From: an uncultured archaeon
GTDB lineage: Archaea > Asgardarchaeota > Thorarchaeia > Thorarchaeales > Thorarchaeaceae
Direction of reading: 5' to 3'
DNA: 43,601 nt
Assembly (NCBI GenBank): GCA_964473825.1
Contig: CAYYQL010000020.1
Span: forward strand, 1 to 43,601
Both the position numbers and the translations under genes were made by a program. Of the stretch, positions 89 through 14,721 are shown one piece after another. Every line of letters starts with the position of its first letter. Positions within the stretch are counted from its first letter, which is position 1. The notes under the pieces are model-generated. The model made no database searches. It saw only the letters and a list, made by a program, of their open reading frames with translations, and was not told the DNA's origin.

Positions 89-944
89 CTTTGAAACCTG
101 AGTGTACTATATAGGATAGAAGTCTTACGGCTTGTGTTGAATCTGCCGAGTATTGGGTTGACCGGCGCGTATATGACGAATTAGGATATTCATTATCCCT
201 AATTACCGTGTACTACTCACTCAGAGGTGATGTCCTGTGACGCGTCGGAGACCAGACCTTTTCGGTATGACGCAAGAATCCATGATTCTGTGGGCGTCAG
301 TGAAGATGAACGTTCGGGTGCGAGAGGTTCGAAATCTGAACCAATCCGCTGTGATGCCTTTATCAGCGCGCTCGCATTATGAATGCCAACGTACAGGATA
401 GTCGGCTCATCCCAAACCTCATGCGTTTTTTGATTTGAGCTGTGAATCTTCATCCTCAGGCCATTTGGATGAAACTACATGGTGTCTTTCCATTTCGTCT
501 AGTCGTCATGGTCAGAAATGCTGTCAAGGAGCACATCAATTTCGGCCTTGATGAGTTCTTTCACATTTCGAGCATCAGTTCGACTTCTTCAATGCCGATA
601 GCCAGAAGGCGTTCTCTTATCTATTGGAGCAGCTCTAGCCCCTTTCATGGAGAAGGATCATTCTGGTATGTAAGACAGTGCAACTCATTATGAACGGCAA
701 TGTAAATGGCACCGCAAGAACCGTCGTGCCATTGTCTGCCATCTCTTCGGAGAGGGCGGAATTAGAGGAATGTGATACGAATGACTAGGACTGTATGTAT
801 CGCGGGTGGTGCAGCATGACATTCCAGACTTCAATCTTGGAAATTTGGAAACCTATTCTGCAATCATTTACACTGATTGACAGTGTATTTCGAACATAGA
901 GAAGAGAACGAGTTGATATCAATACAACTCGTTCACTCAGTGGT

Positions 945-1415
945 TCATTCAGGCTTGAAGTACTCTATGTCTGTTAGCCCACCTTTCCGTTTTGACTTGT
1001 CTTTAAGGACTACAGATACTCGCATCCCGATTTTCACGTCACTGGCATCAATTTCGCCAAGTTGGTGAATGAGCCCTCCATCAGTGCCATCCATCCTGAT
1101 GAAAGCGACCACTACAGGTTCAGCCAGCTTCTCGCTATCTCTGTCCTCATGTGTCACTGTAAATGTGTCAACAACACCGGTTGGTGGGACTTCTACATAT
1201 TCATCGAGTTTCTCGAAGCATTTCTCACAGTACATTCGGGGAGGCATGTAGGTTATTCCACACTTATCGCAGGAGGCAGCAAGGAGCTTACCCTCATTTC
1301 GTAATGCCATGAAGAACTTCTCACCTGCTATGCCTGCAGTATAGATGTAGTCTGCCTCCATATCTCCGACAAGATGTTGCGCCTTCAATGGATTGGTTAT
1401 TTTGTCGAATGACAT
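945..1415 (-). CDS. DUF35 family Zn-ribbon/OB-fold protein (thiolase partner)
   Basis: CDKC..PPRMYCEKC Zn ribbon followed by OB-fold (GVVDTFT..., IGMRVSVV); last gene of thiolase-thiolase-DUF35-DUF35 operon. Confidence 0.93.
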   Translation of the reverse strand: MSFDKITNPLKAQHLVGDMEADYIYTAGIAGEKFFMALRNEGKLLAASCDKCGITYMPPRMYCEKCFEKLDEYVEVPPTGVVDTFTVTHEDRDSEKLAEPVVVAFIRMDGTDGGLIHQLGEIDASDVKIGMRVSVVLKDKSKRKGGLTDIEYFKPE

Positions 1416-1419
1416 CTTT

Positions 1420-1944
1420 CTAGTCCTCCTTCAGTGGTTCGAAAAAGGCAATATCGCGAACAGAGCCAACTCTCTCCCCCTCGGGCTTCCAGACAGCACG
1501 GAGTTTCATTCCTATATGTAAGTCGTCGGGCTTACAGTTCCCTACAAGGTGGAGAATGCCCACGCCCTCACTTGCTCCGTCAAGATCAATGACCGCGACG
1601 AGAATCGGGTCATCTATTCGGTTTGCATCAGCGTCAAGATAGGATATCGAGTAGGTGTTGATTGTGCCAGTATCTTCGACTTCGACCCATTCATCTGTAG
1701 AACGGAAGCACTGTTCACAGAACATCCTGGGAGGCACTATCACCCGTCCACACTCTCGGCAACCGCGTCCAATGATCTTCCCGTTTTTGAGTCCTTCTAG
1801 GAACTTGCTGTATGCAATCCCCGCGCTCCAGACATACTTGGCATTGGGTCGCCACCGGAAGGCGATTGCGTCTTCAGCCTTGAGCTCAGAGTCGCGTAGA
1901 TATACTCCCGGAACGTCTTTCATTTTCTCACTCATCTCACTCAT
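1420..1944 (-). CDS. DUF35 family Zn-ribbon/OB-fold protein
   Basis: CRECG..PPRMFCEQC, GTINTYS, IGMKLRAVW; start placed at ATG 1944 overlapping the thiolase stop (ATGA). Confidence 0.93.
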   Translation of the reverse strand: MSEMSEKMKDVPGVYLRDSELKAEDAIAFRWRPNAKYVWSAGIAYSKFLEGLKNGKIIGRGCRECGRVIVPPRMFCEQCFRSTDEWVEVEDTGTINTYSISYLDADANRIDDPILVAVIDLDGASEGVGILHLVGNCKPDDLHIGMKLRAVWKPEGERVGSVRDIAFFEPLKED

Positions 1945-3104
1945 CTCCTGAATACCGTAACCGTGCCAACTTGCATGAGATCTCCCCATGCTTGGCACAC
2001 ACCAGTTTCTGCTCCATCTACTTGCCGCTTGCCAGCTTCATTTCTCAATTGCCAAAATGCTTCACAACACTTCATCAACCCGGCAGCTGCGATGGGATTC
2101 CCTACTCCCAGTAAACCTCCAGACGGACATATTGGGAGGTCGCCATCACGTTGTGTTACCCCTTCTGCGGTCAGCTTGGGGGCTTGGCCTTTCTCAGCGA
2201 GAAGTAGGCCTTCCATGTGATGTAGCTCCTTGTACGTGAACGGGTCATATGGCTCTGCAAAGTCGACCTCTTTCGGAGGGTCATCAATCTTGGCCATCTT
2301 GTACGCCATTTTTGCCGCCTCAGCAACATATTGTGGGAAGTACAGATCTCTATTTGTCCAGTAGGAGCTATCAAGTGACCATCCCACTCCGTCGATCCAG
2401 ACTGGAGAGTCAGTGTACTTCTTAGCAACATCTTCAGAGGCCAGGATCAAAGCGGCCGCCCCGTCACTGGGCGGACTGATATCCAATCGCTGTACTGGCC
2501 AAACCATAGTCTCAGAGTTCATCACGTCTTCAACTGTTATCTTGGCTGCCAGTTGAGCGCTTGGATGATCCAGTGCGTTGCCTTTGTTCTTCACCGCAAC
2601 TTCCGCAATGTGTTCTTTTGGAATATTGTGGGCCTGCATGTAGCGGTTCATCTCCAAGGCGAAGATCCATACAAGATTCGGGTTCAGAGGTCTAGTTATT
2701 ATTGGATCCCATATTGTACGAAACGCCGTTTGGGGGTGCGGTTGACATGGACTCATCTTCTCTTCTGCGACTACCATACAGGTATCGAAGAGACCAGAAG
2801 CCACATGCCACCAACCCGCTATCGGTGAGAACACCCCTGTGCCGCCACCTACAAAGGGTCTCATATATGGCCTCCCAACTCCACCTGCGCCGTCCAGCAG
2901 GTTCTCTGACTTCATGTGGATGCCATCAAAGGCGTCTGGAGCAGTACCCATCACTACACTCTCGATATCACTCAGATTCATCTCGGCTGAATCGAGTGCC
3001 ATCTTCGATGCATGATACGACAGCTCTTTTCCAGTCTCCTTTAATCTCCGCCTGAAGAGGGTGATTCCGGCTCCAATAACTGCTACGCGTCTCTTTATTG
3101 TCAT
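1941..3104 (-). CDS. SCP2-type thiolase-family protein (non-canonical active site)
   Basis: VAVIGAG, VAEEKMS, VAVKNKGNA..P.AQ, SPPSDGAAA, YDPF, SGGLLGVGNPIAAAG; start trimmed to MTIKRR. Confidence 0.92.
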   Translation of the reverse strand: MTIKRRVAVIGAGITLFRRRLKETGKELSYHASKMALDSAEMNLSDIESVVMGTAPDAFDGIHMKSENLLDGAGGVGRPYMRPFVGGGTGVFSPIAGWWHVASGLFDTCMVVAEEKMSPCQPHPQTAFRTIWDPIITRPLNPNLVWIFALEMNRYMQAHNIPKEHIAEVAVKNKGNALDHPSAQLAAKITVEDVMNSETMVWPVQRLDISPPSDGAAALILASEDVAKKYTDSPVWIDGVGWSLDSSYWTNRDLYFPQYVAEAAKMAYKMAKIDDPPKEVDFAEPYDPFTYKELHHMEGLLLAEKGQAPKLTAEGVTQRDGDLPICPSGGLLGVGNPIAAAGLMKCCEAFWQLRNEAGKRQVDGAETGVCQAWGDLMQVGTVTVFRR

Positions 3105-3117
3105 TCTCCATCTCCTC

Positions 3118-4269
3118 CTATTCTTCGCTCCCGAGAACCAGCATGCTACCTGTGGCTGTGGGCACACCACGCCATGATTGGGCGACTGCTGTGTCTATGT
3201 TTTTCAATTGCCTTTTCCCTGCATGACCTCTCAGCTGCAAGACGCATTCCAATACTGATTGAAGGGAGGAAGCCTCAAGTAAGTTGCCTGCTCCCAATCG
3301 GCCACCGGAGACATTGACGGGGTTTTCTCCATCTCTGTAGAATGCTCCATCTTCAAGGAGCTTGCCTGCCTCCCCCTTCTTACAGATTCCGATAGCCTCC
3401 AAGTGTTGCAGCTCTTTGTATGAAAACCAATCATCAACCTCCAATAGGCCAATCTCCTTCTTCGGATTTGTGATTCCAGCCATTTTGAAGGCCTTTTTGG
3501 CGGTCTTCCGTGCATAGGTAGCATCACTCCAATCTCGTGATTCTAGCCAGGGAGTTTCAGAAATCCAGCTTATTCCTTTCAGCCATATGGGATATTCTGA
3601 GAGTTCCTTGGCCTTCTCCTCCGAGGCAAGAACAAATACAACCGCCCCATCTGCAAGAGGACTGATGTCACGTCTGGTTAGTGGATCAGAAACCATTCCT
3701 GATTTCATCACCTCATCCACAGACATCACTGCAGGATATGCTGCAAGGGGATTGTCTAGCGCATTGTTCTTGTTCTTGGTGACCACGTGCGCACAATGCT
3801 CCCGCGTATTGCCGGACTCAGAGAGCCACTTCTTCATCTCAAGACCAGCAACAAAGAATGGATTCACATCCATGCTTCGATTATACACTGGGTCAAGTGC
3901 GTGGGTCACAATCCCTGTGAATGATAGCAGATCCGAGGCTTTACTATGAGACTCGACTGCCGCAATATCAAACAACCCCGTTTCAATCTGCATGGCCGCT
4001 GTAATGAGCGCCTGCATTCCGTCTCCGCTTATTGTACAGACCGAGCGAAGGACCGCACCAAGCTGGTCAGGCACAAACTCGTCAAAAATCGAGTAACCTT
4101 CCCAGTAGTCCTCAGCACCTGTGATGAAACTGCCAATGTCTTTCCTTGGATCGACTCCTGCATCCTCATATGCCTTGAGGGCAGCTTCAAACATCTGTTC
4201 TTTGAAGGAAACGTCGGGCGTTGTACTTCGAAAACCAGTATGTCCAATACCAACTATAGCTACTGTCAT
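3118..4269 (-). CDS. SCP2-type thiolase-family protein (non-canonical active site)
   Basis: VAIVGIGHT, KNKNNALDNPLA, SPLADGAV, EVDDWFSYKE, VNVSGGRLGAGN, QLRGHAGKRQ. Confidence 0.92.
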   Translation of the reverse strand: MTVAIVGIGHTGFRSTTPDVSFKEQMFEAALKAYEDAGVDPRKDIGSFITGAEDYWEGYSIFDEFVPDQLGAVLRSVCTISGDGMQALITAAMQIETGLFDIAAVESHSKASDLLSFTGIVTHALDPVYNRSMDVNPFFVAGLEMKKWLSESGNTREHCAHVVTKNKNNALDNPLAAYPAVMSVDEVMKSGMVSDPLTRRDISPLADGAVVFVLASEEKAKELSEYPIWLKGISWISETPWLESRDWSDATYARKTAKKAFKMAGITNPKKEIGLLEVDDWFSYKELQHLEAIGICKKGEAGKLLEDGAFYRDGENPVNVSGGRLGAGNLLEASSLQSVLECVLQLRGHAGKRQLKNIDTAVAQSWRGVPTATGSMLVLGSEE

Positions 4270-4433
4270 GGGAAGTACTTCCTCCATCTTGAATACCCAA
4301 GATTCCGAACATCCAACCTTGGTTATACCGGGAGATATTTAGGCCTCTATAAAGCCTTCCGAAATTTCGTGAGAATCAGCAACAGCTTGACCGGATGAGT
4401 AATCTTCATCTCAAATCCGTCAGGCGCGTAACT

Positions 4434-4691
4434 CTCGTCTTCGTATTTGCTATCGTTGATGGCTGAAACGTGGCTATCGCCAACGAGCTCCGCGGCTTGG
4501 ACCCCTGGGATGCTGAGTTTGGCATGCCGGTAAAGGTGGTCTGGCACGACAAGAAGACGCGTCGCGGCACGGTGACCGACTGGCACTTCGAGCCCGCAGA
4601 CGACTGGGAGCCGAGCCCCATGAACGACGAGAAGCGTCGCATCAAGGAGCTGTGCGAACCCGTCTTCGAATGGGTCAAGACGATGAAGTAG
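4434..4691 (+). pseudogene. 5'-truncated DUF35/OB-fold gene remnant with C-terminal helical extension
   Basis: LVFVFAIVDG*NVAIANELRGLDPWDAEFGMPVKVVWHDKKTRRGTVTDWHFEP...CEPVFEWVKTMK*; GMPVKVVW..RGTVTD.HFEP matches the C-termini of the two intact DUF35 genes here; in-frame TGA at 4464-4466; no Zn ribbon upstream. Confidence 0.8.
4623..4691 (+). repeat. Gene-tail repeat copy 1 (NDEKRRIKELCEPVFEWVKTMK*)
   Basis: Reference copy; core TCTTCGAATGGGTCAAGA at 4663-4680. Confidence 0.9.
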
Positions 4692-4703
4692 AATACACAT
4701 TGA

Positions 4704-4746
4704 TGAGCTGGAGTCGATAACTCCCAGCTCACTCTTCTTCTTTTTC
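4704..4746 (+). terminator. Hairpin plus pyrimidine tract after repeat copy 1
   Basis: TGAGCTGGAGT-cgata-ACTCCCAGCTCA (one bulge) followed by CTCTTCTTCTTTTT. Confidence 0.7.
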
Positions 4747-4766
4747 AGATATCGTTTTCTTGAGGA

Positions 4767-4979
4767 AACAAACTCTCCAAAACTTATTCCTGCTTGTCGT
4801 AAGATTGAACGTAATGTACCTTGAGCTAGTTTCTTGTGATCCGGAATTATCACAACTAGATTTCGTGGAGTCAGAAGTTTCTTCATTCTAACATGAGAGC
4901 CCTTTCTACCTACTATCTCAAATCATCTATCTGCGAGATACCTGATCATCTCTTTTCCAGAGAGAACTGGAGCTTTCAA
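4767..4979 (-). pseudogene. hicA: HicA family toxin with nonsense mutation
   Basis: From TTG 4979: LKAPVLSGKEMIRYLADR*FEIVGRKGSHVRMKK...IIPDHKKLAQGTLRSILRQAGIS; TGA at 4923-4925 replaces the conserved Gly of GF; no stop at the expected 3' end. Confidence 0.85.
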
Positions 4980-5188
4980 CTCGAAGCCTCAAGAAGAGAG
5001 ATAATTGGCTGGCCTGTAAGGGGTGGTCTTATTGCATCTTCATCTTCAAAATAGAGTTCCAGCGCTTCCTTGAGATTTGCCAGAGCCTCTTCTATTGTTT
5101 CACCTTGACTAGCAATATCTACATCTGGAGCAAGTGCAACATAGTGCTTTTCTTCACGACTAACGACCACAGTAAAGAACATTGACAT
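4976..5188 (-). CDS. hicB: HicB family antitoxin (short, no DNA-binding domain)
   Basis: YVALAPDVDIASQGETIEEALANLKEALELYFE signature; stop overlaps hicA start (TTGA). Confidence 0.9.
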   Translation of the reverse strand: MSMFFTVVVSREEKHYVALAPDVDIASQGETIEEALANLKEALELYFEDEDAIRPPLTGQPIISLLEASS

Positions 5189-5281
5189 CGAAACCACCTT
5201 CAAAGAATTCTCTATTAGTCTTTGTCAACCAACCTTTTGAACGCGTATCTGAATGAACATATGACCTGCGTAACTAGTCGC

Positions 5282-5314
5282 CCTGTCACCGACTGGGTCA
5301 AGACCATGAAATAG
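5282..5314 (+). repeat. Gene-tail repeat copy 2 (PVTDWVKTMK*)
   Basis: 27/33 nt identical to 4659-4691 by hand count, stop codon retained. Confidence 0.85.
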
Positions 5315-5330
5315 GCTCAACATGAACCAT

Positions 5331-5367
5331 CTGGGCGGCCATCTTCGTCCAGTACTTCCCTTTTTTC
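5331..5367 (+). terminator. Hairpin plus T-tract after repeat copy 2
   Basis: CTGGGCGG-ccatct-TCGTCCAG (with G-T pairs) then TACTTCCCTTTTTTC. Confidence 0.6.
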
Positions 5368-5484
5368 TGGTGCCGTATCTCGGAAGTTTCCTCGGATGGG
5401 CCAAGTAAACTCAATGTATCATCTAGAGCTCTATCTATGCAGACTTCAGTGTCCTCAGAGAACAGCATTCCACTTGATTCAGAG

Positions 5485-7377
5485 CTATGACGAGGACTTT
5501 TTACGGCGATGCAGAACAATCAGTGTTCCGAATACTGCGGCGACCCCCCCTCCAATAATGGTCACGATGAGGGACAGCATCTGGAGGCGAACGATGGGGT
5601 CAATGACCGTCACCATGACTGTGTCGGAAACGCTGTTGCCATGCACATCAGCCGCCACTATGGTGTAGATGTGGGTGCCAGCATCAAGACCGTCCACGGA
5701 GATGGTGATGGTCGCAGAACTCGAGTTCCACATCCCTGATTCCAGCGGCAGACCATTGAGGTAGATTGTATACGTGTCGGGGCTGAGGTCCTCAAGGACC
5801 CAGCTGATGGTGTGTCCTGTCGTGCCATGCTCGTACTCGATGTCTGCTGGACGACTGATCGTGGGCGGTGTTGTGTCCACCACGGTGACAAGCACCATGT
5901 CACTCCCCTCATTTCCTAGGATATCCCTTGCGACAAGTGTGTAGGCGTAGACTCCCACGGCAAGCTCGTCGATAGAGATGGTGATGGTCTCGGAGCTTGT
6001 GTTCCAGACTCCCGTTCTCACCACTGTATCGTTGCGATAGACAGCGTAGCTGTGGGGGTTCAGGTCCTCAGGACTCCACGTGATGGTGTGCCCAGTGGTC
6101 CCGTACTCGTACGCGATATCTTCCGGACCGTCGACCGTGGGCGGGATGTTGTCGATCCGATAGGGATGGTTGTCGATGCTCTCTGCTGAACCCGGAATGA
6201 GGTAGGCGCCGTCGCCATCATAGTCGTCCCAGTAGTTGCCGTGTGTACCATTGTCCCAGGTATTCGCAGTGCCGTTGTCCATGGCATTGTGCTGAGCGTT
6301 GTCGTAGAGCCGGTTGAGAGACAGCAAAACATCCTGACTGGATCTGCTTAGACAGACGCCACAGACATTGTCGGTAGCGGTATTGTTGATGAACACGCAG
6401 TCAGAGCCACCCAATAGGAAACCTCTCTCACCGTTACTAATGGCCGCGTTGCTGATCAGGGTGCATTCATCAGCGTCCAACAAGAATCCCGTCCGACCAT
6501 TGTTGATAGCACTGTTCATCGTCATGGTGAGATGATTGTGGGAAATGAACAAGAAACCATGGTCGGTGGCATTGCTGGCAATATTCCCTATCATGATGGA
6601 TGCTGAACCATACAGGAAATAGAACCCGCCCAGATTCTTGACAGCTCTGTTATCCGTGAAGGTGCCGTTGGAGTAGTGGAAAAAGAAACCATCTCCTGAA
6701 CTGTTCGTGACGATGTTGGCTGTATAGATGCAGTTGTAGGCGAATTTGGCAGAGATTCCCTTTCCACCAGTATCGCTGATGGTGTTGTTCTCAATGATAG
6801 AGTCACGAACAATCCAGAAACTGATACCGCCCCACTCGCTATCGTTGATGGTGTTGTTCAGGATGGTGCAGTCACTTGAGTGATCGATGTAGACTCCACA
6901 TTCATTGCTCCATAGGATGCTGTCCGCCACGGTGCAGTTAGGCGACGAAGAGAATCTCACTCCGTACCCGTGCAGCTCAATGACACAGTCCTTCACAGTT
7001 CCATGGGTCACGTTGTCAAAGACGATGCCATCGCTGCTGGTCGGCAGAGGTGCCGAGATGAGACAGTCCCTTATCTCGAAGTAGACATCTGTGTTGTTGA
7101 CAGTGATGCATGTTGAGCTGTGTATGATCCGCAGCCCCTCGATGACATAAGGGTCATCTTCAGTCCCGCTCCCCGGCCATTCCTGGTCCTCGAAGTCAGC
7201 GTTCCCGTTGATGGTGATGGGTCCGTGGGGGGTATAGGAGAGGACAGAGTTCACCTGCTGCTCCTTTCGACTGACCCGGCTCTCTCGGAATGATCCATGG
7301 GTGACCATGCAGACATTCGATAGAAGCAGCGCTACAAGGACCAGCAGTGTATAGACTCGACGTTCCCACTCACCCAT
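5485..7377 (-). CDS. Cell-surface protein: signal peptide, NosD/CASH right-handed beta-helix, two Ig-like repeats, C-terminal TM anchor
   Basis: WPGSGTEDDPYVIEG, Asn-ladder repeats, GNYWDDY motif, two ~92-aa D..PPT...GTTGHTI.W units, TM followed by RRKK; GGAGGA before ATG 7377. Confidence 0.9.
   Translation of the reverse strand: MGEWERRVYTLLVLVALLLSNVCMVTHGSFRESRVSRKEQQVNSVLSYTPHGPITINGNADFEDQEWPGSGTEDDPYVIEGLRIIHSSTCITVNNTDVYFEIRDCLISAPLPTSSDGIVFDNVTHGTVKDCVIELHGYGVRFSSSPNCTVADSILWSNECGVYIDHSSDCTILNNTINDSEWGGISFWIVRDSIIENNTISDTGGKGISAKFAYNCIYTANIVTNSSGDGFFFHYSNGTFTDNRAVKNLGGFYFLYGSASIMIGNIASNATDHGFLFISHNHLTMTMNSAINNGRTGFLLDADECTLISNAAISNGERGFLLGGSDCVFINNTATDNVCGVCLSRSSQDVLLSLNRLYDNAQHNAMDNGTANTWDNGTHGNYWDDYDGDGAYLIPGSAESIDNHPYRIDNIPPTVDGPEDIAYEYGTTGHTITWSPEDLNPHSYAVYRNDTVVRTGVWNTSSETITISIDELAVGVYAYTLVARDILGNEGSDMVLVTVVDTTPPTISRPADIEYEHGTTGHTISWVLEDLSPDTYTIYLNGLPLESGMWNSSSATITISVDGLDAGTHIYTIVAADVHGNSVSDTVMVTVIDPIVRLQMLSLIVTIIGGGVAAVFGTLIVLHRRKKSSS
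5602..6153 (-). repeat. Intragenic tandem duplication of a 92-aa Ig-like domain (276-nt period)
   Basis: DNIPPTVDGPEDIAYEYGTTGHTITW.. and DTTPPTISRPADIEYEHGTTGHTISW.. Confidence 0.85.
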
Positions 7378-7615
7378 GTTTGCTCCTCCAGGTCTACGTA
7401 CCAACACCATACTTGGAAACAGGCCCTTTCAAGTCTTTCTTGCAGTCCCATTCTCCTTGAGTGTTTCTTGATGCTCTGGATACGGAAGTGTGTCTTTCAG
7501 CACCACAGTTGAGTAACCGGCAGCACATCCTGGTGTTGTTCCGTGATACATCACTCTCTACCCTCCTGCTATCGTTCTTCGACGGCTGCCTAAGAGATTT
7601 GCATTTCCATCTTCG

Positions 7616-8458
7616 CTACCCGAGTTTCGGACCAATGACAAAGCCTCCGTTCGGATTGCCATCATATTTCTGAGGGGTGTCCTCTTCATCACGTTCTTTG
7701 AATACCATGAAGCTATCAAACGCCTCGTCATACACAATCTCCTGAGCCACATTGCACCCATATGATCGTATCAGCCCATTCCATTCAAGGATGTAATGGT
7801 AGGTCCATACTCCATTCTCCAGATCATGATCCTCGAATGATACTCCGTTGTAGTGGCAAGCCGATGTCGCAAACACATTCGCACTGTTGTCGATGTTTTC
7901 GAGGTCGTCCAAGAAGCCACCAGAATGACAGAAATCAAGGAATAGGAAGATGCGCCTTGCCACCGCTGTGGCCAGTATTGAGGCAATCTCAGAATCGTAG
8001 AGGTAGCTCTCCTCCCATGTAACGAAGTATGTTTCAGTTGTTTCACCAATCTGGCCACCATGACCAGCGAAGATGACTGCGATGTGATCATCAGAGTCAG
8101 CAACACCCACCAGCCAGTTCAGGGAGTTCACGATGTTGGTCTTCGTCGCCAGTGCGTAGTAGCTCTGATAGTAGCTTGTGTCATCTCCCAGAACCCTTAC
8201 CTCATCAAACTCAATCGTACAGGTAAGGAAGCAGTACCAATCGTTCGCGTCATCATCGGCATAGTCTAAATCATTAACTCCCGTGGAGTCATCATAGTCG
8301 CTGATCCCGACAATGACTGCGTAATAGTTGACTGTTGTTGCTCTTGCATCTGGGATTGACCCAAGACCAAGGATCAGGACGCCAAGGAGCAGTACAACAA
8401 CAACTCGCTTCCTCCTCGGCCACCTGTGGTTGATATCTACAGCATGAAACACAGACAT
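7616..8458 (-). CDS. Caspase-like (clan CD, C14 metacaspase-type) peptidase with N-terminal signal/TM segment
   Basis: YAVIVGISDY, DLDYADDDA, ATKTNI, FAGHG (His) and LDFCHSGG (Cys) dyad; RRKR plus hydrophobic stretch at the N-terminus. Confidence 0.88.
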   Translation of the reverse strand: MSVFHAVDINHRWPRRKRVVVVLLLGVLILGLGSIPDARATTVNYYAVIVGISDYDDSTGVNDLDYADDDANDWYCFLTCTIEFDEVRVLGDDTSYYQSYYALATKTNIVNSLNWLVGVADSDDHIAVIFAGHGGQIGETTETYFVTWEESYLYDSEIASILATAVARRIFLFLDFCHSGGFLDDLENIDNSANVFATSACHYNGVSFEDHDLENGVWTYHYILEWNGLIRSYGCNVAQEIVYDEAFDSFMVFKERDEEDTPQKYDGNPNGGFVIGPKLG

Positions 8459-8639
8459 ATACCCCCTTTGTGTTAGAAACTCACGAAACTATTAGATACA
8501 TTGCCTTATATTTTTTTGTTCAAAGGTTTGGTTATAGAAGCGCTGTCAACCCGACACAGAGCTATGATGGGCGCGGCGAGACGTCCAGCACGTCTCTCAA
8601 ATTGCCCCGCCTTGTTACGCCGTTGAGTCCCGTTTCACT

Positions 8640-8708
8640 GATGACGAGAAGCGATTCATCAACGAGCGCTGCGAGTCCGCCTTCGAATGGGTGTGGACAA
8701 TGAAACAG
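8640..8708 (+). repeat. Gene-tail repeat copy 3 (DDEKRFINERCESAFEWVWTMKQ)
   Basis: 52/69 nt identical, ungapped, to 4623-4691 by hand count; TAG changed to CAG. Confidence 0.88.
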
Positions 8709-8719
8709 ACTTGAAACGA

Positions 8720-8754
8720 GGGAGATGGAATAATTCAGCTCTCATCCCTTTTTC
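8720..8754 (+). terminator. Degenerate hairpin plus T-tract after repeat copy 3
   Basis: GGGAGATGGAATAATTCAGCTCTC then ATCCCTTTTTC; shares GAG.TGGA...CAGCTC with the copy-1 hairpin. Confidence 0.5.
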
Positions 8755-8881
8755 ATACAACTCCAATTCGTTTCTTTCGATGTCACAGGAGTCTGTCGTA
8801 TCTCGGTATTGAGAGGACACCTTCGAGTTTATATGCCGAATCTGATGTAGGGGTGTTTGGAACAATCAAGAGGGGTCGAAC

Positions 8882-9277
8882 ATGCTCGACAATAGTGAGA
8901 TAGTACGAAGAATTCTGGAAGCCGCACCAGAAGGCATCAGTCTCATTGTATTATTTGGTTCAAGAGCCCGAGGTGACCACTCTGAAGCAAGTGATCTTGA
9001 TATTGCCATCAGCACAACAGAAACAGACGCGCAGAAACGATTTGATCTTCGACTCCAGGTCATCTCTGCACTGGAAGGGCCCGAAACTGCCGTAGATGTG
9101 GTTCTTGTTGAAGATGCGAATTGGACTCTACGTTATCGCATAGCGAGAGATGGAGTTGTACTGTTTCAGAGGAATCCCGACTCGTGGTCCGATTTCATTG
9201 AAGAAGTCCTCATACGATATCCCGACTACAGAATCTTTGAACAGCGTCTGCTCAGAGAAACACTGGGAGGTCTCTAG
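8882..9277 (+). CDS. mntA: Minimal nucleotidyltransferase (MntA-type antitoxin)
   Basis: LFGSRARGDHSEASDLDIA, VDVV, IARDGVVLF. Confidence 0.92.
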   Translation: MLDNSEIVRRILEAAPEGISLIVLFGSRARGDHSEASDLDIAISTTETDAQKRFDLRLQVISALEGPETAVDVVLVEDANWTLRYRIARDGVVLFQRNPDSWSDFIEEVLIRYPDYRIFEQRLLRETLGGL

Positions 9278-9278
9278 G

Positions 9279-9710
9279 GTGGGTCTTGATGCAACAATTG
9301 TCGAGCGACGACTAGCAGTCATTCTAGAGGAGCTCAAGTTCTTGAAGATCATAAAAGCACAGAGCTATGATGAGTTCTTGACTGATGGAAAGAGCCTAAG
9401 GGCAACAGCTAGAGCCATTGAGACCATTGCCCAGTCGATAATCGATGTCAGCAGCCACATTGTTGCCCAGAAGAACTACGGGCTTAGTGATACCTACAAA
9501 GGTACAATCGAGCTCTTAGCTAAGAACCACATCATCCCCAGTGATTTTGCATCTAGTCTACAGAAGGTCATTGCCATGCGGAACGTGTTAGTGCATCAGT
9601 ACATAGAGATCGATTTCGGAATAGTATGGGATTCAATCGACTCTCTTCTGGTTGATGCGCCGAGATTCGTCCGTGCAATTGAGAAGTATTTGAAGGCCGA
9701 AGCGGCATGA
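9279..9710 (+). CDS. hepT: HEPN/DUF86 RNase toxin (HepT-type)
   Basis: RNVLVHQY.EID (Rx4H-Y) motif; GTG start directly after the MNT stop. Confidence 0.92.
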   Translation: MGLDATIVERRLAVILEELKFLKIIKAQSYDEFLTDGKSLRATARAIETIAQSIIDVSSHIVAQKNYGLSDTYKGTIELLAKNHIIPSDFASSLQKVIAMRNVLVHQYIEIDFGIVWDSIDSLLVDAPRFVRAIEKYLKAEAA

Positions 9711-9734
9711 CACACGAGACTGTAACATCATTGT

Positions 9735-10100
9735 CTAGGCGATGTTCCAGAACACGACAAGGTCATCCGACCACTTGAAACGTCATTGAAGAAGAATCAG
9801 GCTGCAGTGAATGCAACCATAGTCGTGGAAACTCTACACTATCTTGTGAAACGTCTAGGTTCCCTGGAGGGACCAAAGAGAGGGCGCATCTTTCTGAGCT
9901 ATGAGATGCCGTTCTACAGTATAGATGAAGAAACAGCTGATTTGACGGTCACGAAACTTGGCTAATTCACCCATCTTGGGATTGGTGGACGAAATCCGAC
10001 AGTCTTGGCAACTATATCAGTTGAGTGTATAACCAGCTTGATGACGCATGATCAAGCGTTCAAACGTATTCCTGACCTTGATGTGGTTGATCCAGTATAG
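9735..10100 (+). pseudogene. vapC: VapC/PIN-domain toxin remnant
   Basis: LGDVPEHDKV...VVETLHYLVKRLG...KLG*FTHLGIGGRNPTVLAT...LMTHDQAFKRIPDLDVVDPV*; N-terminal Asp strand missing, internal TAA at 9963-9965. Confidence 0.8.
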
Positions 10101-10103
10101 ATC

Positions 10104-10142
10104 TGTGAGCCGGTCTTTGAGTGGATAAGAACTATGAGATAA
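10104..10142 (+). repeat. Gene-tail repeat copy 4 (CEPVFEWIRTMR*)
   Basis: 26/39 nt but 9/12 aa identical plus 3 conservative changes versus 4653-4691; stop kept; followed by the same GAGCTGGAGT as copy 1 (10157-10166 vs 4705-4714). Confidence 0.85.
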
Positions 10143-10349
10143 TCATGTAGCATGAAGAGCTGGAGTTCTCCGGTCCCCTCCTCTCAGCCTTCAGTGTATT
10201 CACGATCCATTTCCATTCAGTACTAGAGTGATCCATGTAACTCTGGTACTGGTGTGAAACAGACAAATGAAGGAACCAAAGCAGAGGATGCAAAGGTATA
10301 AACTCGAAGAAATGCTTGAAAGAGCCATCAGCCGTGGGAGATATTGTCC

Positions 10350-10775
10350 ATGCCCAAGTTACCTGAGCCACGCAAGAAACGCTACATGCAGAAGATACAT
10401 CATGGTCGACATCGGATTGCACTTGTCAAAGAATGGCAAAAGGAAGGAGCATCTGAATATGAAATAAAGAGTCTGTTAGCAATAGAGAAAGCGGCTCAGG
10501 AATCTATTGAAGTTGCTACAGACTTGATGGCGATGATTCTGAAGGACATATCCATCCCGCCGACCGATGATTACACTAATATCTCAAAGGTTAGAGATGA
10601 GGGTATCATAACGGAGGAAATTGGAGGGGTTCTGAGAGAAGCCAATGGGCTTAGAAATCGTCTTATTCATGTGTATAATGACATAGAGCAAGAAGTGCTT
10701 TTGCAAAGCATCAAACGAGTCATTCCCGGAATATCCGAGTTCTTGGATGTGGCGGAAAAATGGTTGAGCGGATGA
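10350..10775 (+). CDS. hepT: HEPN/DUF86 RNase toxin
   Basis: AIEKAAQESIE, PTDDYTNI, GLRNRLIHVYN. Confidence 0.9.
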   Translation: MPKLPEPRKKRYMQKIHHGRHRIALVKEWQKEGASEYEIKSLLAIEKAAQESIEVATDLMAMILKDISIPPTDDYTNISKVRDEGIITEEIGGVLREANGLRNRLIHVYNDIEQEVLLQSIKRVIPGISEFLDVAEKWLSG

Positions 10776-11200
10776 TATCTAAAACCAGAGATGAACTTGA
10801 TTGGATGCAAGAGATACCTGAGATTGATGCAGTTCTCCTATTCGGTTCTCAAATTGAAGGTACTGCCACAGATACAAGCGACTACGACCTCTGCGTTGTT
10901 GCTTCAACTCTTCAATCCGCAGACGAGATGGCAGAACTTCTTGGTAAGATTTGGAGGCAGTTGGATGCAAACAAGTATGATGTTTGGGTCTTTGAAGAGC
11001 TACCTTTGTACCTCCAGATGACTGTAATCGGTAACCATGAGATTCTTTTCTGTGACGATGTCCCCGACCTCTATGAATACTTCTATAGATTCAGAAAAGA
11101 GTGGAGAACCCAAGCGCAGAGGCAGTCTCTGGATTTTGAAGTCGGTGCTGATCCGATGAATCTCAAGGAGATTTGGAAAACAGGATCCTCGTCCACATAA
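10772..11200 (+). CDS. mntA: Minimal nucleotidyltransferase antitoxin
   Basis: LLFGSQIEGTATDTSDYDLCV, YDVWVFEELPLY; ATGA overlap with the HEPN stop. Confidence 0.9.
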   Translation: MISKTRDELDWMQEIPEIDAVLLFGSQIEGTATDTSDYDLCVVASTLQSADEMAELLGKIWRQLDANKYDVWVFEELPLYLQMTVIGNHEILFCDDVPDLYEYFYRFRKEWRTQAQRQSLDFEVGADPMNLKEIWKTGSSST

Positions 11201-11213
11201 ACTGCGCTTCACT

Positions 11214-11321
11214 TCATAACCTCAATAAGGTGATGATAGGGTTCCTCGTCAGTGGTGGTCTAATCGCATGTTCCTCCTCGAGATAGAGTTCCTAAGCTTC
11301 CTTGAGCTTCGCGACAACCAG
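11214..11321 (-). pseudogene. hicB: HicB remnant (C-terminal half)
   Basis: LVVAKLKEA*ELYLEEEHAIRPPLTRNPIITLL aligns to EALANLKEALELYFEDEDAIRPPLTGQPIISLL of the HicB at 4976-5188; TAG at 11292-11294. Confidence 0.8.
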
Positions 11322-11483
11322 CTCATTTCTCTATCTCCTCACTCAAGAACCGATCAGGGGCCAATTCAAGGTCCAGAGGGTTGATGAGCTCGAAACTCAT
11401 GTCATGATAGGATATGCCAAATGTATATCTGGCGACAATCCATGGTATTGGCTATTATCACTTGGCTTAGGAGTTGTCAGAAC

Positions 11484-12401
11484 TTGCAGACGTGTCCAAA
11501 GTGTGGGAGAGCGAATGATGTGACGAGGAAGTTCTGCGTTCGTTGCGGGGCCTCTCTCCTAAATAGAGAAGAAGAATTGACGCCAGAACCTGTCAGGGCG
11601 CCTGCAACCGAACCAGTCCTAGAAGAGACTGTTGAATCCGAAGAAGCTGGCGTAGAACCTCCGGGCGAGGTACCCTCTGATTTGGTGAAAGCCGAAAAAG
11701 CTGGACCGGCCGAGTCCCATGTGCTGGACCGTGAGAGCGGGAAGGCGGTTGTCAAGGACATCCTTGAGAAGGTAAGAGCCGTGCAGACGGTTCCCCGGGC
11801 GGAACCTGAGGTCAAGGAGCCAACCTCAGAAGTGGAGGTCGTTGAGGAAATACCCGTTGAGGTTATTGAAGAACAACCGCCCGTTGAGGCGCCAACGACT
11901 GAGCCAGAGATTGAGCCCTCCTCTCCCGAGCCCCCAGCTCCGCGACCCAAAGAGGCTATTATGCATGACTATGCTCCGGACGTTCCTCCTTCAGCTGTTG
12001 CAGAGGCTGTTTATGAAGTCGCACGAGATGAGAAGATCAGAAGCATTGATTCAGACATCAAGGCCTATACCATCGAACTCGGACAGCTAAACTCCGAGCT
12101 GGACAAGTTGCGGGCTCGTCTTGACTCCGAGGTTGACCGTTACCTCACCGTTGCCGAAACAAAACGGACTCATTTTGAGGGCCTAGAGCGGGAGCTGAGC
12201 CTCGCAAAGAACGAGTATAAAGAGGCAAGTAAGGAACACAAGAACTCGGAGAAACGTCGGAAGAAAGAGTTGTCAGAAGCAGAAAAGCGTATCCGGAATT
12301 CGGAAAAGCGAATCAAGAAGGCGGAGAACGCCAGACAGAAGCGAGTTGACAAACTGGAGAAAGAGCGGCGAAAACGCGAAGAAGAAGCCATGAGGGATTA
12401 G
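11484..12401 (+). CDS. Zinc-ribbon protein with acidic Pro/Glu-rich linker and C-terminal coiled coil
   Basis: CPKCGRAN...FCVRCG; E/P-rich middle; heptad E/K/R-rich tail; TTG 11484 preceded by AGGAG. Confidence 0.85.
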   Translation: MQTCPKCGRANDVTRKFCVRCGASLLNREEELTPEPVRAPATEPVLEETVESEEAGVEPPGEVPSDLVKAEKAGPAESHVLDRESGKAVVKDILEKVRAVQTVPRAEPEVKEPTSEVEVVEEIPVEVIEEQPPVEAPTTEPEIEPSSPEPPAPRPKEAIMHDYAPDVPPSAVAEAVYEVARDEKIRSIDSDIKAYTIELGQLNSELDKLRARLDSEVDRYLTVAETKRTHFEGLERELSLAKNEYKEASKEHKNSEKRRKKELSEAEKRIRNSEKRIKKAENARQKRVDKLEKERRKREEEAMRD

Positions 12402-12406
12402 GTTTC

Positions 12407-12431
12407 TCTTCGAATGGGTCAAGAGTATGAA
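12407..12431 (+). repeat. Gene-tail repeat copy 5 (outer boundary)
   Basis: TCTTCGAATGGGTCAAGA identical to 4663-4680, then nnATGAA (23/25). Confidence 0.85.
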
Positions 12432-12512
12432 TTGCAGCGGTGACAATCGAGTCGGCCCTATAGGCCACTTGGCCGAATAAGAGAAAAGCCCGTCTGCTCC
12501 TAGAGCAGAACC

Positions 12513-12935
12513 ATGCACAATCAGACCCCCTTCGCATTGTGTGTCATCGGTGGATTGTTGTTGATCATAACTGGATACACCCAAGGTGTGGGAACAATCA
12601 TTTTGATCTATCAGCTTGTACATTCGCTCGCGGCGTTGTCACCATTCTATCCCATCATTGACTCTGTATTGCTTGTCCTCTGGATTATTGCTTGGCTTGG
12701 AGGTTTTGCAGTGATTCTTGGCGGATATCTCCTGACGACGACACATGTTGGGCTCGGGAAATTCATCATTGCAATCGCGTCGGGCTTTGGACTCATCAGT
12801 TTTGTTCTGGCATTGCTCTACGTCGGTATCACGTCGGGACCCGTGGGCCTTCTTGTGCTCACTTGGTTCGTTCTGAACTCTGCTTGGGCACTCGGGCTTG
12901 TGTTGACGGTGATTGCCAGGACGAAGGCAGTATAG
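12513..12935 (+). CDS. Hypothetical integral membrane protein (~4 TM)
   Basis: Almost entirely hydrophobic 140-aa ORF. Confidence 0.8.
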   Translation: MHNQTPFALCVIGGLLLIITGYTQGVGTIILIYQLVHSLAALSPFYPIIDSVLLVLWIIAWLGGFAVILGGYLLTTTHVGLGKFIIAIASGFGLISFVLALLYVGITSGPVGLLVLTWFVLNSAWALGLVLTVIARTKAV

Positions 12936-12996
12936 AGTCCTTCATCTCGATATCCGGCCGTTGATGGTGGTTTTCAACACGCCACCATGTGGTGTT

Positions 12997-13458
12997 CTAG
13001 AACGCTCTTTCCATCCAAGGTCCTTTGTAGTCTCTTATGAAGACAACTCCAGCTAGGATTGCCATTACTCCAGCGAGAAACCCTGGCGCAAGGAGAATGA
13101 TTGCGTCGCCCAGTTCGGCTCCGAACATAAAAGGCACAACGATGGTCATGATTCCCCCACATATCCCACAACATGGGGTGGCCTGTACTCGTTGTCCTGT
13201 GTCTCTGGTTGTCACCGTCCTGGTGTACGTCCCGTCGTAGTTGGGTGTTTCGACTACAGTCTGGTCCATCACGGCAGTGAGGCCTCCCTTGTATGCCATG
13301 CCCATCCCTAGAAACATCACGATGGACAGAGTTCCTGCAACCATGGCGCCGACCCAGTCATCAAAGGCAATTAGACTGAGAGCAGCCTGAGCGATGAGGA
13401 ATAATGACGATATGAAGAACAGAATCGCACTGTTTCTTGATCCTTTCAAGATTCGCAT
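12997..13458 (-). CDS. Hypothetical membrane protein (4 TM, Thr-rich loop, CCGIC motif)
   Basis: Hydrophobic pairs flanking a polar loop. Confidence 0.8.
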   Translation of the reverse strand: MRILKGSRNSAILFFISSLFLIAQAALSLIAFDDWVGAMVAGTLSIVMFLGMGMAYKGGLTAVMDQTVVETPNYDGTYTRTVTTRDTGQRVQATPCCGICGGIMTIVVPFMFGAELGDAIILLAPGFLAGVMAILAGVVFIRDYKGPWMERAF

Positions 13459-13530
13459 TCTCCCTAGAGCCTAGGATTATCCAATCTAAGTAATATCTCT
13501 TTCAGATACGACGAACCAAGGTTGTTCTGA

Positions 13531-13869: not shown

Positions 13870-14052
13870 AAATCATGCTGCATAAAGCGTATCAGGATAT
13901 TACTGCTTGCACGGCGAAATGGAACGTTCAAGATCACGTTAGTTTGCTGTGTCTGGCTGAGAGAAAGGCGTCTTCAATCAGTTTCTCTCGCGTCGAAGAA
14001 GGATATGAAACACATATAGATGAAGGAAGCTTCTCTTTGGGAGGTGAAACTC

Positions 14053-14721
14053 GTGGGTATATCGATTCGTTTGCTAGCTCATGCGAGCGTACAGATTAGG
14101 ACAGACACTCAGAACATCTACATAGACCCAACGACAAAAGGGACAGGTCTCAAGAAGGGCGACTTCAGCCCTGCAGATTTGATACTGGTCACACACGGCC
14201 ATCAGGATCATTTCGACAAGGGTCTAATCAAGAAGATTCGGAAGTTGGGGTCACCAGTGATAGCTCCCGAGGGCCTCAAGAAGGAGTTGAAAGGGGCTGT
14301 GGTGTGGGGGATGGATTCAGGTCAGCACATGGTGATAAGTGACGGACCTACCATCTGGACGACTCCGGCATATAATGTGAAGAGATTCCGCTCCCCCGGG
14401 AAGCCATATCATCCTCAGGGATTGGGAGTTGGCTACATCATCAAGCTGGATGATAAGAAGATATACCATGCCGGCGATACAGACTTGATTCCGGAGATGG
14501 AGCGGCTCCCCGAGCTTGATGTCGCACTACTCCCAAGTGGCGGGACCTATACGATGGACATGACTGAGGCTGCTGAGGCGGCAATCCTCATCAAGCCGAA
14601 GATTGCGATTCCTATACATCTCCGAGATGCCGACCCTCAGGGTTTCAAAGAGCAAGTTGAGAAGAACTCTTCAGCGAGAGTTGTCATTCTGGGTCACGGT
14701 GAGGAGTACGTGCTTGAGTGA
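14053..14721 (+). CDS. Metallo-beta-lactamase fold hydrolase (UlaG/UPF0173-like)
   Basis: IYIDP, LVTHGHQDH, IYHAGDT, AIPIH; GGAGGTGA before GTG 14053. Confidence 0.92.
   Translation: MGISIRLLAHASVQIRTDTQNIYIDPTTKGTGLKKGDFSPADLILVTHGHQDHFDKGLIKKIRKLGSPVIAPEGLKKELKGAVVWGMDSGQHMVISDGPTIWTTPAYNVKRFRSPGKPYHPQGLGVGYIIKLDDKKIYHAGDTDLIPEMERLPELDVALLPSGGTYTMDMTEAAEAAILIKPKIAIPIHLRDADPQGFKEQVEKNSSARVVILGHGEEYVLE

Follow-up and report, generated by a model that had tools for sequence, protein, structure and literature searches.

Displaced gene tails bound exchanged gene cassettes downstream of a DUF35-type gene in Thorarchaeota

We found that a 39-base repeat in the genome of an uncultured Thorarchaeota (Asgard) archaeon is one of five leftover copies of the end of a thiolase-partner (DUF35-type) gene, and that blocks of accessory genes have been inserted, removed and swapped at these copies, with no tyrosine or serine recombinase found in or near the arrays. 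The analysis started from a stretch of 43,601 nucleotides (assembly GCA_964473825.1, contig CAYYQL010000020.1, positions 1 to 43,601), hereafter the window, and was extended to related genomes, in about a quarter of which (22 of 86) the same arrangement recurs. The five copies lie on the same strand and in the same register, and their coordinates, together with those of the cassettes between them, are collected in Table 1. In what follows genomes are labelled G, their contigs C, and extracted loci L, with G000 being the genome that carries the window and G002 its sister genome.

Table 1 Features of the tail array and its surroundings (positions are those of the window)
Position	Strand	Feature	Supporting observation
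849..4453		Inverted operon of two thiolase-like and two ordinary DUF35 genes	Replaces the partner thiolase gene and the first 130 codons of the extended DUF35 gene, relative to G002
4413..4691	+	5'-truncated remnant of the extended DUF35 (zf-ChsH2 + OB_ChsH2_C + 45-aa tail) gene, residues 131-222 of about 220 aa; its end is tail copy 1 (4653-4691), CEPVFEWVKTMK-stop	Search with protein P0001 matches residues 131-222, 60% identity, one TGA inside; blastn gives 90% identity to the last 240 nt of the intact G002 gene; intact relatives are 219-222 aa
4671..4681	+	Core TGGGTCAAGAC of copy 1; same register at 5294-5304 (copy 2), 8688-8698 (copy 3), 10122-10132 (copy 4, degenerate, 7/11) and 12415-12425 (copy 5)	Exchange point maps here in four comparisons; synonymous sites of the core unusually conserved
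4702..4745	+	Terminator-like hairpin (GAGCTGGAGT..CCAGCTC) plus T run after copy 1, of the type that follows the intact gene in other Thorarchaeota genera	Fold -15.8 kcal/mol, z -2.9; similar hairpins follow resident tails in L059, L065, L060, L067 and L075; hits of 88-89% in four genomes of genus g6
4747..5203	-	Cassette 1: hicB (4976-5203) and a hicA of which only the C-terminal half is recognisable (4747-4886)	Pfam HicB_lk_antitox/UPF0150/DUF7387 (all below Pfam's curated cut-offs) and HicA_toxin profile positions 32-58; same cassette flanked by tail copies in G100, G065, G020 and G023
5282..5314	+	Tail copy 2 (PVTDWVKTMK-stop); left 12 nt cassette-borne; core, right part and following terminator (about 5331-5367) are the displaced resident gene end	Three-way alignment with G002
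5485..8458	-	Cassette 2: NosD/beta-helix protein (5485-7410) and caspase-like peptidase C14 (7616-8458)	Pfam; the same pair follows the intact gene directly in G002
8637..8715	+	Tail copy 3 (..DDEKRFINERCESAFEWVWTMKQT-stop), decayed, CAG at the stop position	Positional counterpart in G002 is intact and nearly identical to the resident tail
8882..10100	+	Cassette 3: MNT nucleotidyltransferase (8882-9277), HepT RNase (9279-9710) and remnant of a further gene ending in ..LMTHDQAFKRIPDLDVVDPV-stop (about 9745-10100), read by eye as PIN/VapC-like	Pfam Polbeta/NTP_transf_2 and HepT-like; no family for 9786-9965 or 9966-10100; 90% identical to a G002 cassette behind a different tail
10104..10142	+	Tail copy 4, CEPVFEWIRTMR-stop	Comparison with copy 1 (see text)
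10344..11400	+	Cassette 4a: HepT (10344-10775), MNT (10760-11200) and a decayed hicB-like remnant on the minus strand (about 11212-11400), broken by a stop or frameshift	Pfam; the hicB-like repeat is 73% identical to hicB; intact HepT-MNT-hicB occurs between tails in G002:C8 and G023:C495
11421..12401	+	Cassette 4b: zinc-ribbon plus coiled-coil protein, 326 aa	Pfam Zn_Ribbon_1; syntenic in the arrays of G002, G065 and G064
12404..12432	+	Tail copy 5 (LFEWVKSMN, stop lost), the oldest copy	Orthologue in G002 has decayed differently (LFKWTKTLR)
14020..14721		Metallo-beta-lactamase-fold (MBL) gene	Two fragments of it in G002

A preliminary description of this sequence had reported that copy 4 differs from copy 1 in the manner of coding sequence, and that observation was correct. 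The two copies match at 26/39 bases, with 1/2/10 differences at codon positions 1/2/3: six sense codons are synonymous (TGC/TGT, GAA/GAG twice, CCC/CCG, TTC/TTT, ACG/ACT), the three replacements are conservative (V/I, K/R and K/R), and the stop changes from TAG to TAA. The hypergeometric probability of at least 10 of 13 differences falling at third positions was 9.5e-5. We also placed 13 random substitutions on copy 1 in a simulation, and at most three replacements with the stop kept and no inner stop occurred with P = 3e-5. The statements made about two other copies, three synonymous changes and an intact stop in copy 2, and many non-synonymous changes and a lost stop in copy 3, also held: copy 2 has 3 synonymous and 2 replacement codons with an intact stop, while copy 3 has 5 synonymous and 7 replacement codons over the 22 codons compared (about 8640-8708; the copy spans 22-24 codons, about 8637-8708).

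We next asked what the gene is and in what state it survives. The 73-aa frame that ends in copy 1 has no Pfam hit of its own, but it matches the last third of proteins of about 220 aa (P0001 and P0008), which consist of the ChsH2-type zinc ribbon, the OB fold and a 45-residue C-terminal extension, and which sit directly behind a 425-428-aa thiolase-like gene. The family is placed in Thorarchaeota, with more distant orthologues in Thermoplasmata. Copy 1 is not the end of an intact gene, as the gene itself is dead in G000: its first 130 codons and its partner thiolase are missing, and no orthologue of that thiolase exists elsewhere in the genome, where the best match is 32% identical. Copy 1 is therefore a relic rather than a working C-terminus, none of the tails is a functional C-terminus now, and the ancestral operon has been destroyed while its downstream cassette array persists.

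To determine whether the arrangement could be generalised we took 80 loci holding the gene with 10-kb flanks and searched them with a profile of the last 50 alignment columns. This gave 109 hits of at least 8 bits on the strand of the gene and 2 on the other, and all extra copies on the gene strand lay downstream, apart from one 9-bit hit upstream in locus L112 that we take as chance. Sixteen Thorarchaeota loci carried one to three extra tails, whereas the Thermoplasmata loci with the same gene carried none. The 27 spacings between tails ran from 533 to 9667 nt, with a median near 1.5 kb. Across 86 genomes of the family the pattern GAATGGGTCAAGNNNATGAA, with one mismatch allowed, occurred 97 times in 49 genomes, against once for the reversed control, and 22 genomes had two or more matches on one contig, always on one strand. 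The largest array, in G078 (C10:1-36000; loci L158/L159), has 11 tails over 30 kb, its cargo includes a heliorhodopsin, methyltransferases, TPR and LVIVD proteins and a HepT, and its first cassette holds a HerA-like ATPase and an HNH/NUMOD3 endonuclease. Cargo elsewhere includes methyltransferases, TPR, LRR and NosD proteins, ABC ATPases, a CAAX protease, HepT and a heliorhodopsin.

The coding-like divergence was also general. In the 16 other loci 25 displaced tails differ from their resident tail by 68/41/192 changes at codon positions 1/2/3, and 23 of them keep an in-frame stop at the same place. If only the resident copy were under selection while the displaced copy drifted, at most half of the differences could be at third positions; since the observed 64% exceeds that, most of the divergence arose while both sequences were constrained as protein.

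Four comparisons of an occupied site with another arrangement placed the exchange point in a core of 11-16 nt (TGGGTCAAGAC, codons W-V-K-T). In the first, G002 has no hicAB cassette at this place, and its resident tail equals copy 1 to the left of the core and copy 2 to the right of it, including the terminator hairpin and 55 nt of flank, while the last ten bases and the hairpin of copy 1, and the first 12 nt of copy 2, are foreign. In the second, L066 is an empty site for a 1.3-kb cassette present in L057, with a 16-nt shared core and the same mosaic pattern. In the third and fourth, contig C8 of G002 has one tail with the left flank of copy 2 and the right flank of copy 5, and another with the left flank that precedes copy 4 in the window and the right flank of copy 2. 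Each tail is thus a mosaic, whose left part belongs to the cassette on its left and whose right part and terminator belong to what was previously the gene end. The hairpin after copy 1, being of the type that follows the intact gene in other genera, is direct evidence for an imported end. Moreover, the hicAB and HepT-MNT(-hicB) cassettes lie between tails in four other genera, at 72-82% DNA identity and with different tails beside them.

The core also appears to be constrained at the DNA level. Third positions of the E-W-V-K codons mismatch in 15/75 comparisons, against 77/175 for flanking synonymous-capable positions (Fisher 3e-4). In resident genes of 38 Thorarchaeota loci the Val after Trp is GTC in 35, and the Glu before it is GAA in 31 of 36, although elsewhere in the same gene GAG is preferred and Val codons are mixed; Thermoplasmata use GTT, GTA or GTG at that Val. 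These counts are not phylogenetically independent, but the other columns share the same tree, suggesting that the core is either a site that something recognises or one that is kept uniform by repeated overwriting.

The best explanation, to which we give a probability of about 0.62, is that copy 4 is one of five scars left where blocks of DNA were exchanged at the 3' end of a conserved gene, an extended DUF35/ChsH2-like protein gene that follows a thiolase-like gene in Thorarchaeota. In this view a cassette carries a stretch that mimics the last codons of the gene together with a terminator, and exchange with the chromosomal tail happens inside the core, so that after insertion the gene would end in cassette-borne sequence, with a tail behind the cassette whose left part is cassette-borne and whose right part and terminator are the former gene end. 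Repeating this process, and running it in reverse between any two tails, would stack, delete and reshuffle cassettes. The tails would diverge like coding sequence because the pieces come from working gene ends of other lineages and take turns serving as the working end, and in G000 the array was orphaned once the gene lost its 5' half. The analysis itself demonstrates the repeat architecture, its mosaic junctions, its direction, its recurrence and the selection signature, whereas we infer from these that cassettes move between lineages and that the core is acted on in trans by a sequence-specific enzyme, a recombinase or a homing-type nuclease, which we favour about two to one over plain homologous recombination.

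Some results do not fit this explanation neatly. Not every breakpoint between G000 and G002 lies at a tail, since in G002:C8 window position 7618 is joined to 10189, and the MNT-HepT cassette does not carry the same tail or terminator in the two genomes. The core is also the longest stretch of identity, meaning that a homology-dependent process would map there too. In addition all the genomes are MAGs, and G002 (7% contamination) may mix strains: the remnant gene upstream of copy 4 appears split between the end of its contig C14 (C14:1-18000) and the start of C8 (C8:1-9000), so that the two contigs probably join and C8 continues the array, in which case G002 carries two NosD copies and two fragments of the MBL gene, implying either real duplication inside the array or a mix of strains in the bin.

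The preliminary description had proposed that the tails were each once the functional C-terminus of the gene in different lineages, imported or displaced rather than decayed local duplications, and that the array may record successive donors; this interpretation was only partly supported. Displaced and imported ends are both real, as the right half and terminator of copy 2 are orthologous to the resident gene end of G002, and the last bases and hairpin of copy 1 are of the type found after the intact gene in other genera. However, each tail is a mosaic of two sources joined at a short core and not one donor allele, and the order of tails is not a clean chronological record, since G002 carries the same cassettes in another order with recombinant tails. 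No intact orthologue in the 80 loci ends in EWIRTMR or PVTDWVKTMK, and among 103 tails none was closer to copy 4 than 8/39 differences, the nearest resident tails differing from it at 8-10 of 39 nt, so no donor lineage can be named. Since the core of copy 4 is also degenerate, the claim that this copy was once a working C-terminus rests on the substitution pattern alone.

We then looked for the enzyme. Pfam scans found no PF00589 tyrosine recombinase in the window, whose annotated genes include no tRNA, integrase or transposase, and a search for a tRNA or tmRNA target in the window found none. G000 has a single PF00589 hit, on another contig, whose protein has no close orthologue in most array-bearing genomes, and G078 (97% complete), G068, G062 and G022 have arrays but no PF00589 hit. 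By our tally PF00589 was found in roughly two thirds of the array-bearing genomes examined and in about 5 of 13 without arrays, which is no clear link. Serine recombinases (PF00239) were absent from G000, G073, G068 and G067. No XerA/dif-like palindrome was seen by eye in the tail, an Rfam search of window positions 4000-13500 gave only two chance-level hits, and a scan of IMG/VR with the core pattern for a viral attP gave 11 hits, all chance in-frame EWVK matches without tail context. PHROGs and PDB sequence searches of large unknown cargo proteins, including a 613-aa ORF beside a displaced tail in L071, a G078 locus, returned nothing. Of ten first-cassette ORFs other than the G078 endonuclease Pfam named none as a nuclease, five matching Rce1-like, TPR, NosD or LRR families and five matching nothing, and the first ORFs of L071, L089 and L085 are unrelated to each other.

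Among the possible mechanisms, which sequence alone does not separate, the one that survives best, though it remains unlikely, is a dedicated site-specific recombinase of an unrecognised family, encoded elsewhere, that recombines tail cores, so that circular cassettes would excise and reinsert as in an integron or in accretion arrays of integrase-less elements (CIME, pseudo-SCC). The four exchange points in one core and the conservation of its synonymous sites agree with this idea, as do the incoming hicAB cassette, which shares only 33 nt with the host, with 11 nt of perfect identity, and the cassettes of 0.5-10 kb (median about 1.5 kb), which have no recombinase of their own. On the other hand no tyrosine or serine recombinase co-occurs with the arrays, and some displaced tails carry up to 46-126 codons of gene sequence left of the core, which a core-only recombinase does not need.

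Almost as likely is a homing-type spread, in which a nuclease would cut the gene tail at or near the core and the break would be repaired by copying from an allele that carries a replacement tail, a cassette and a displaced tail, the latter serving as the right-hand homology arm. This model needs no integrase and explains the long left-hand homology, and an endonuclease of 618 aa with an HNH domain and five NUMOD3 motifs does sit in the first cassette of the largest array (G078, L071), next to the HerA-like ATPase, with homologues next to a tail in G065 and at a contig end in G069. The published mobile endonuclease ORFs (mORFs) with a carried C-terminus show the same signature, their inserted and native C-termini being 63.5% identical in DNA but 91% in protein (PMC3630166). 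However, the endonuclease occurs in only one to three arrays and not in that of the window, the resident tails keep the consensus core after insertion, which is not the expected loss of the cut site, and no co-conversion tract is visible left of the core in copy 1, where divergence is about 9%, as over the whole 240 nt.

Less likely still is plain homologous (RadA-type) single-crossover insertion and loop-out of circularised DNA fragments from related strains, with the conserved tail being simply the best available homology next to a variable region. No special enzyme was found, the left boundaries of the tails vary from 7 to over 46 codons, as random fragment ends would, and other genes in G000 also have displaced tails downstream; but exchange occurred with as little as 11 nt of identity inside 33 nt of 80% similarity, the synonymous conservation of the core against codon preference is left unexplained, and arrays are absent from Thermoplasmata that have the same gene. 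Local tandem duplication followed by neutral decay, with no import and no mobility, can be all but dismissed, since although copies 3 and 5 are decayed and have lost the stop, the excess of third-position differences, the 23/25 stops kept, the mosaic junctions with foreign terminators and the presence of the same cassettes behind different tails in other genomes contradict it.

Searches of the literature for integron-like or homing-type arrays in Asgard archaea found no description of this structure, but parts of it resemble known systems. Integrative elements that insert into the 3'-distal part of archaeal protein genes, and arrays formed by re-use of a site, are described for Thaumarchaeota (PMC6563490). 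Phage 21/e14 at icd, ICESt/CIME accretion at fda and SCC/pseudo-SCC at rlmH are further examples of integration at a gene's 3' end. As in such elements the direct repeats derive from the end of the target gene, empty and occupied sites differ exactly at the repeat, stacking is in tandem, some array members lack a recombinase, and the element supplies a new stop region: resident tails in 16 arrays are intact and followed by foreign sequence, and the last codons and the stop of copy 1 are cassette-borne. Here, however, no integrase was detected in any array or, in several genomes, anywhere, cassettes can be as small as 0.5-0.6 kb, and the repeats reach 46-126 codons and are diverged like alleles rather than being short identical att cores.

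In the fungal mitochondrial mORFs (atp6, atp9, cox2 and nad3 of Glomus; atp6 of Allomyces; PMC3630166) an inserted foreign C-terminus is likewise fused to the gene, the native C-terminus is displaced downstream, the two differ mostly by synonymous changes, and horizontal origin is inferred. In those cases one endonuclease ORF lies between the two ends, whereas here there are up to 11 tails and ordinary cargo such as toxin-antitoxin pairs, methyltransferases, TPR, NosD and a heliorhodopsin. Integrons share the fixed platform next to a conserved gene, the many small cassettes each bounded by a copy of a recombination site, and the strain-specific content with a reshuffled order, but no IntI-type recombinase lies next to the array, the sites are in-frame copies of a coding gene end plus its terminator and not attC hairpins, and cassettes lie in both orientations, several of them looking self-expressed. 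Nor do the repeats behave as the target-site duplication of a casposon or transposon, since they are 24-378 nt, diverged, and end at the stop codon, and no transposase-like family appeared among the cargo.

A broader reading, which is possible but less likely than not, is that Asgard archaea, at least Thorarchaeota, possess a general, integrase-independent gene-capture mechanism in which the last codons of conserved genes serve as portable recombination sites, and accessory-gene cassettes are stacked, exchanged between lineages and reshuffled behind them by an enzyme of an undescribed kind or by targeted break repair. This would be a functional counterpart of integrons, with the DUF35-type gene as one of several platforms. 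If tail-bounded arrays are a regular feature of Asgard genomes, they are a main route by which these archaea gain and shuffle accessory genes, including toxin-antitoxin pairs, surface proteins, methyltransferases and a heliorhodopsin, and they would do so without the recombinases on which all current mobile-element finders rely, so that such islands are missed by existing tools. The conserved core gives a concrete DNA substrate with which to look for the enzyme, and the synonymous-biased tails are a simple sequence signature for finding further platforms.

Tail displacement is not unique to this gene. A genome-wide scan of G000 found further genes with a displaced, stop-retaining copy of their end 1.9-4.5 kb downstream on the same strand, on contigs C10 (gene stop 16120, fragment ending 20663) and C60 (uS19-like gene stop 8509, 15-aa tail copy ending 10440), while the upstream control gave one hit. 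The same scan showed regularly spaced short repeats with a 72-77 nt period on contigs C10 (about 77.3-78.5 kb), C19 (about 25.7-27.1 kb) and C32 (about 20.8-21.3 kb), which look like CRISPR arrays or tandem repeats. Finally, a 162-aa metagenomic protein (P0024) contains four or five tandem repeats of a 20-residue unit (LDDWQMMPVNDEKIQPKSG.) derived from the tail region of this gene family, a different kind of amplification of the same sequence.
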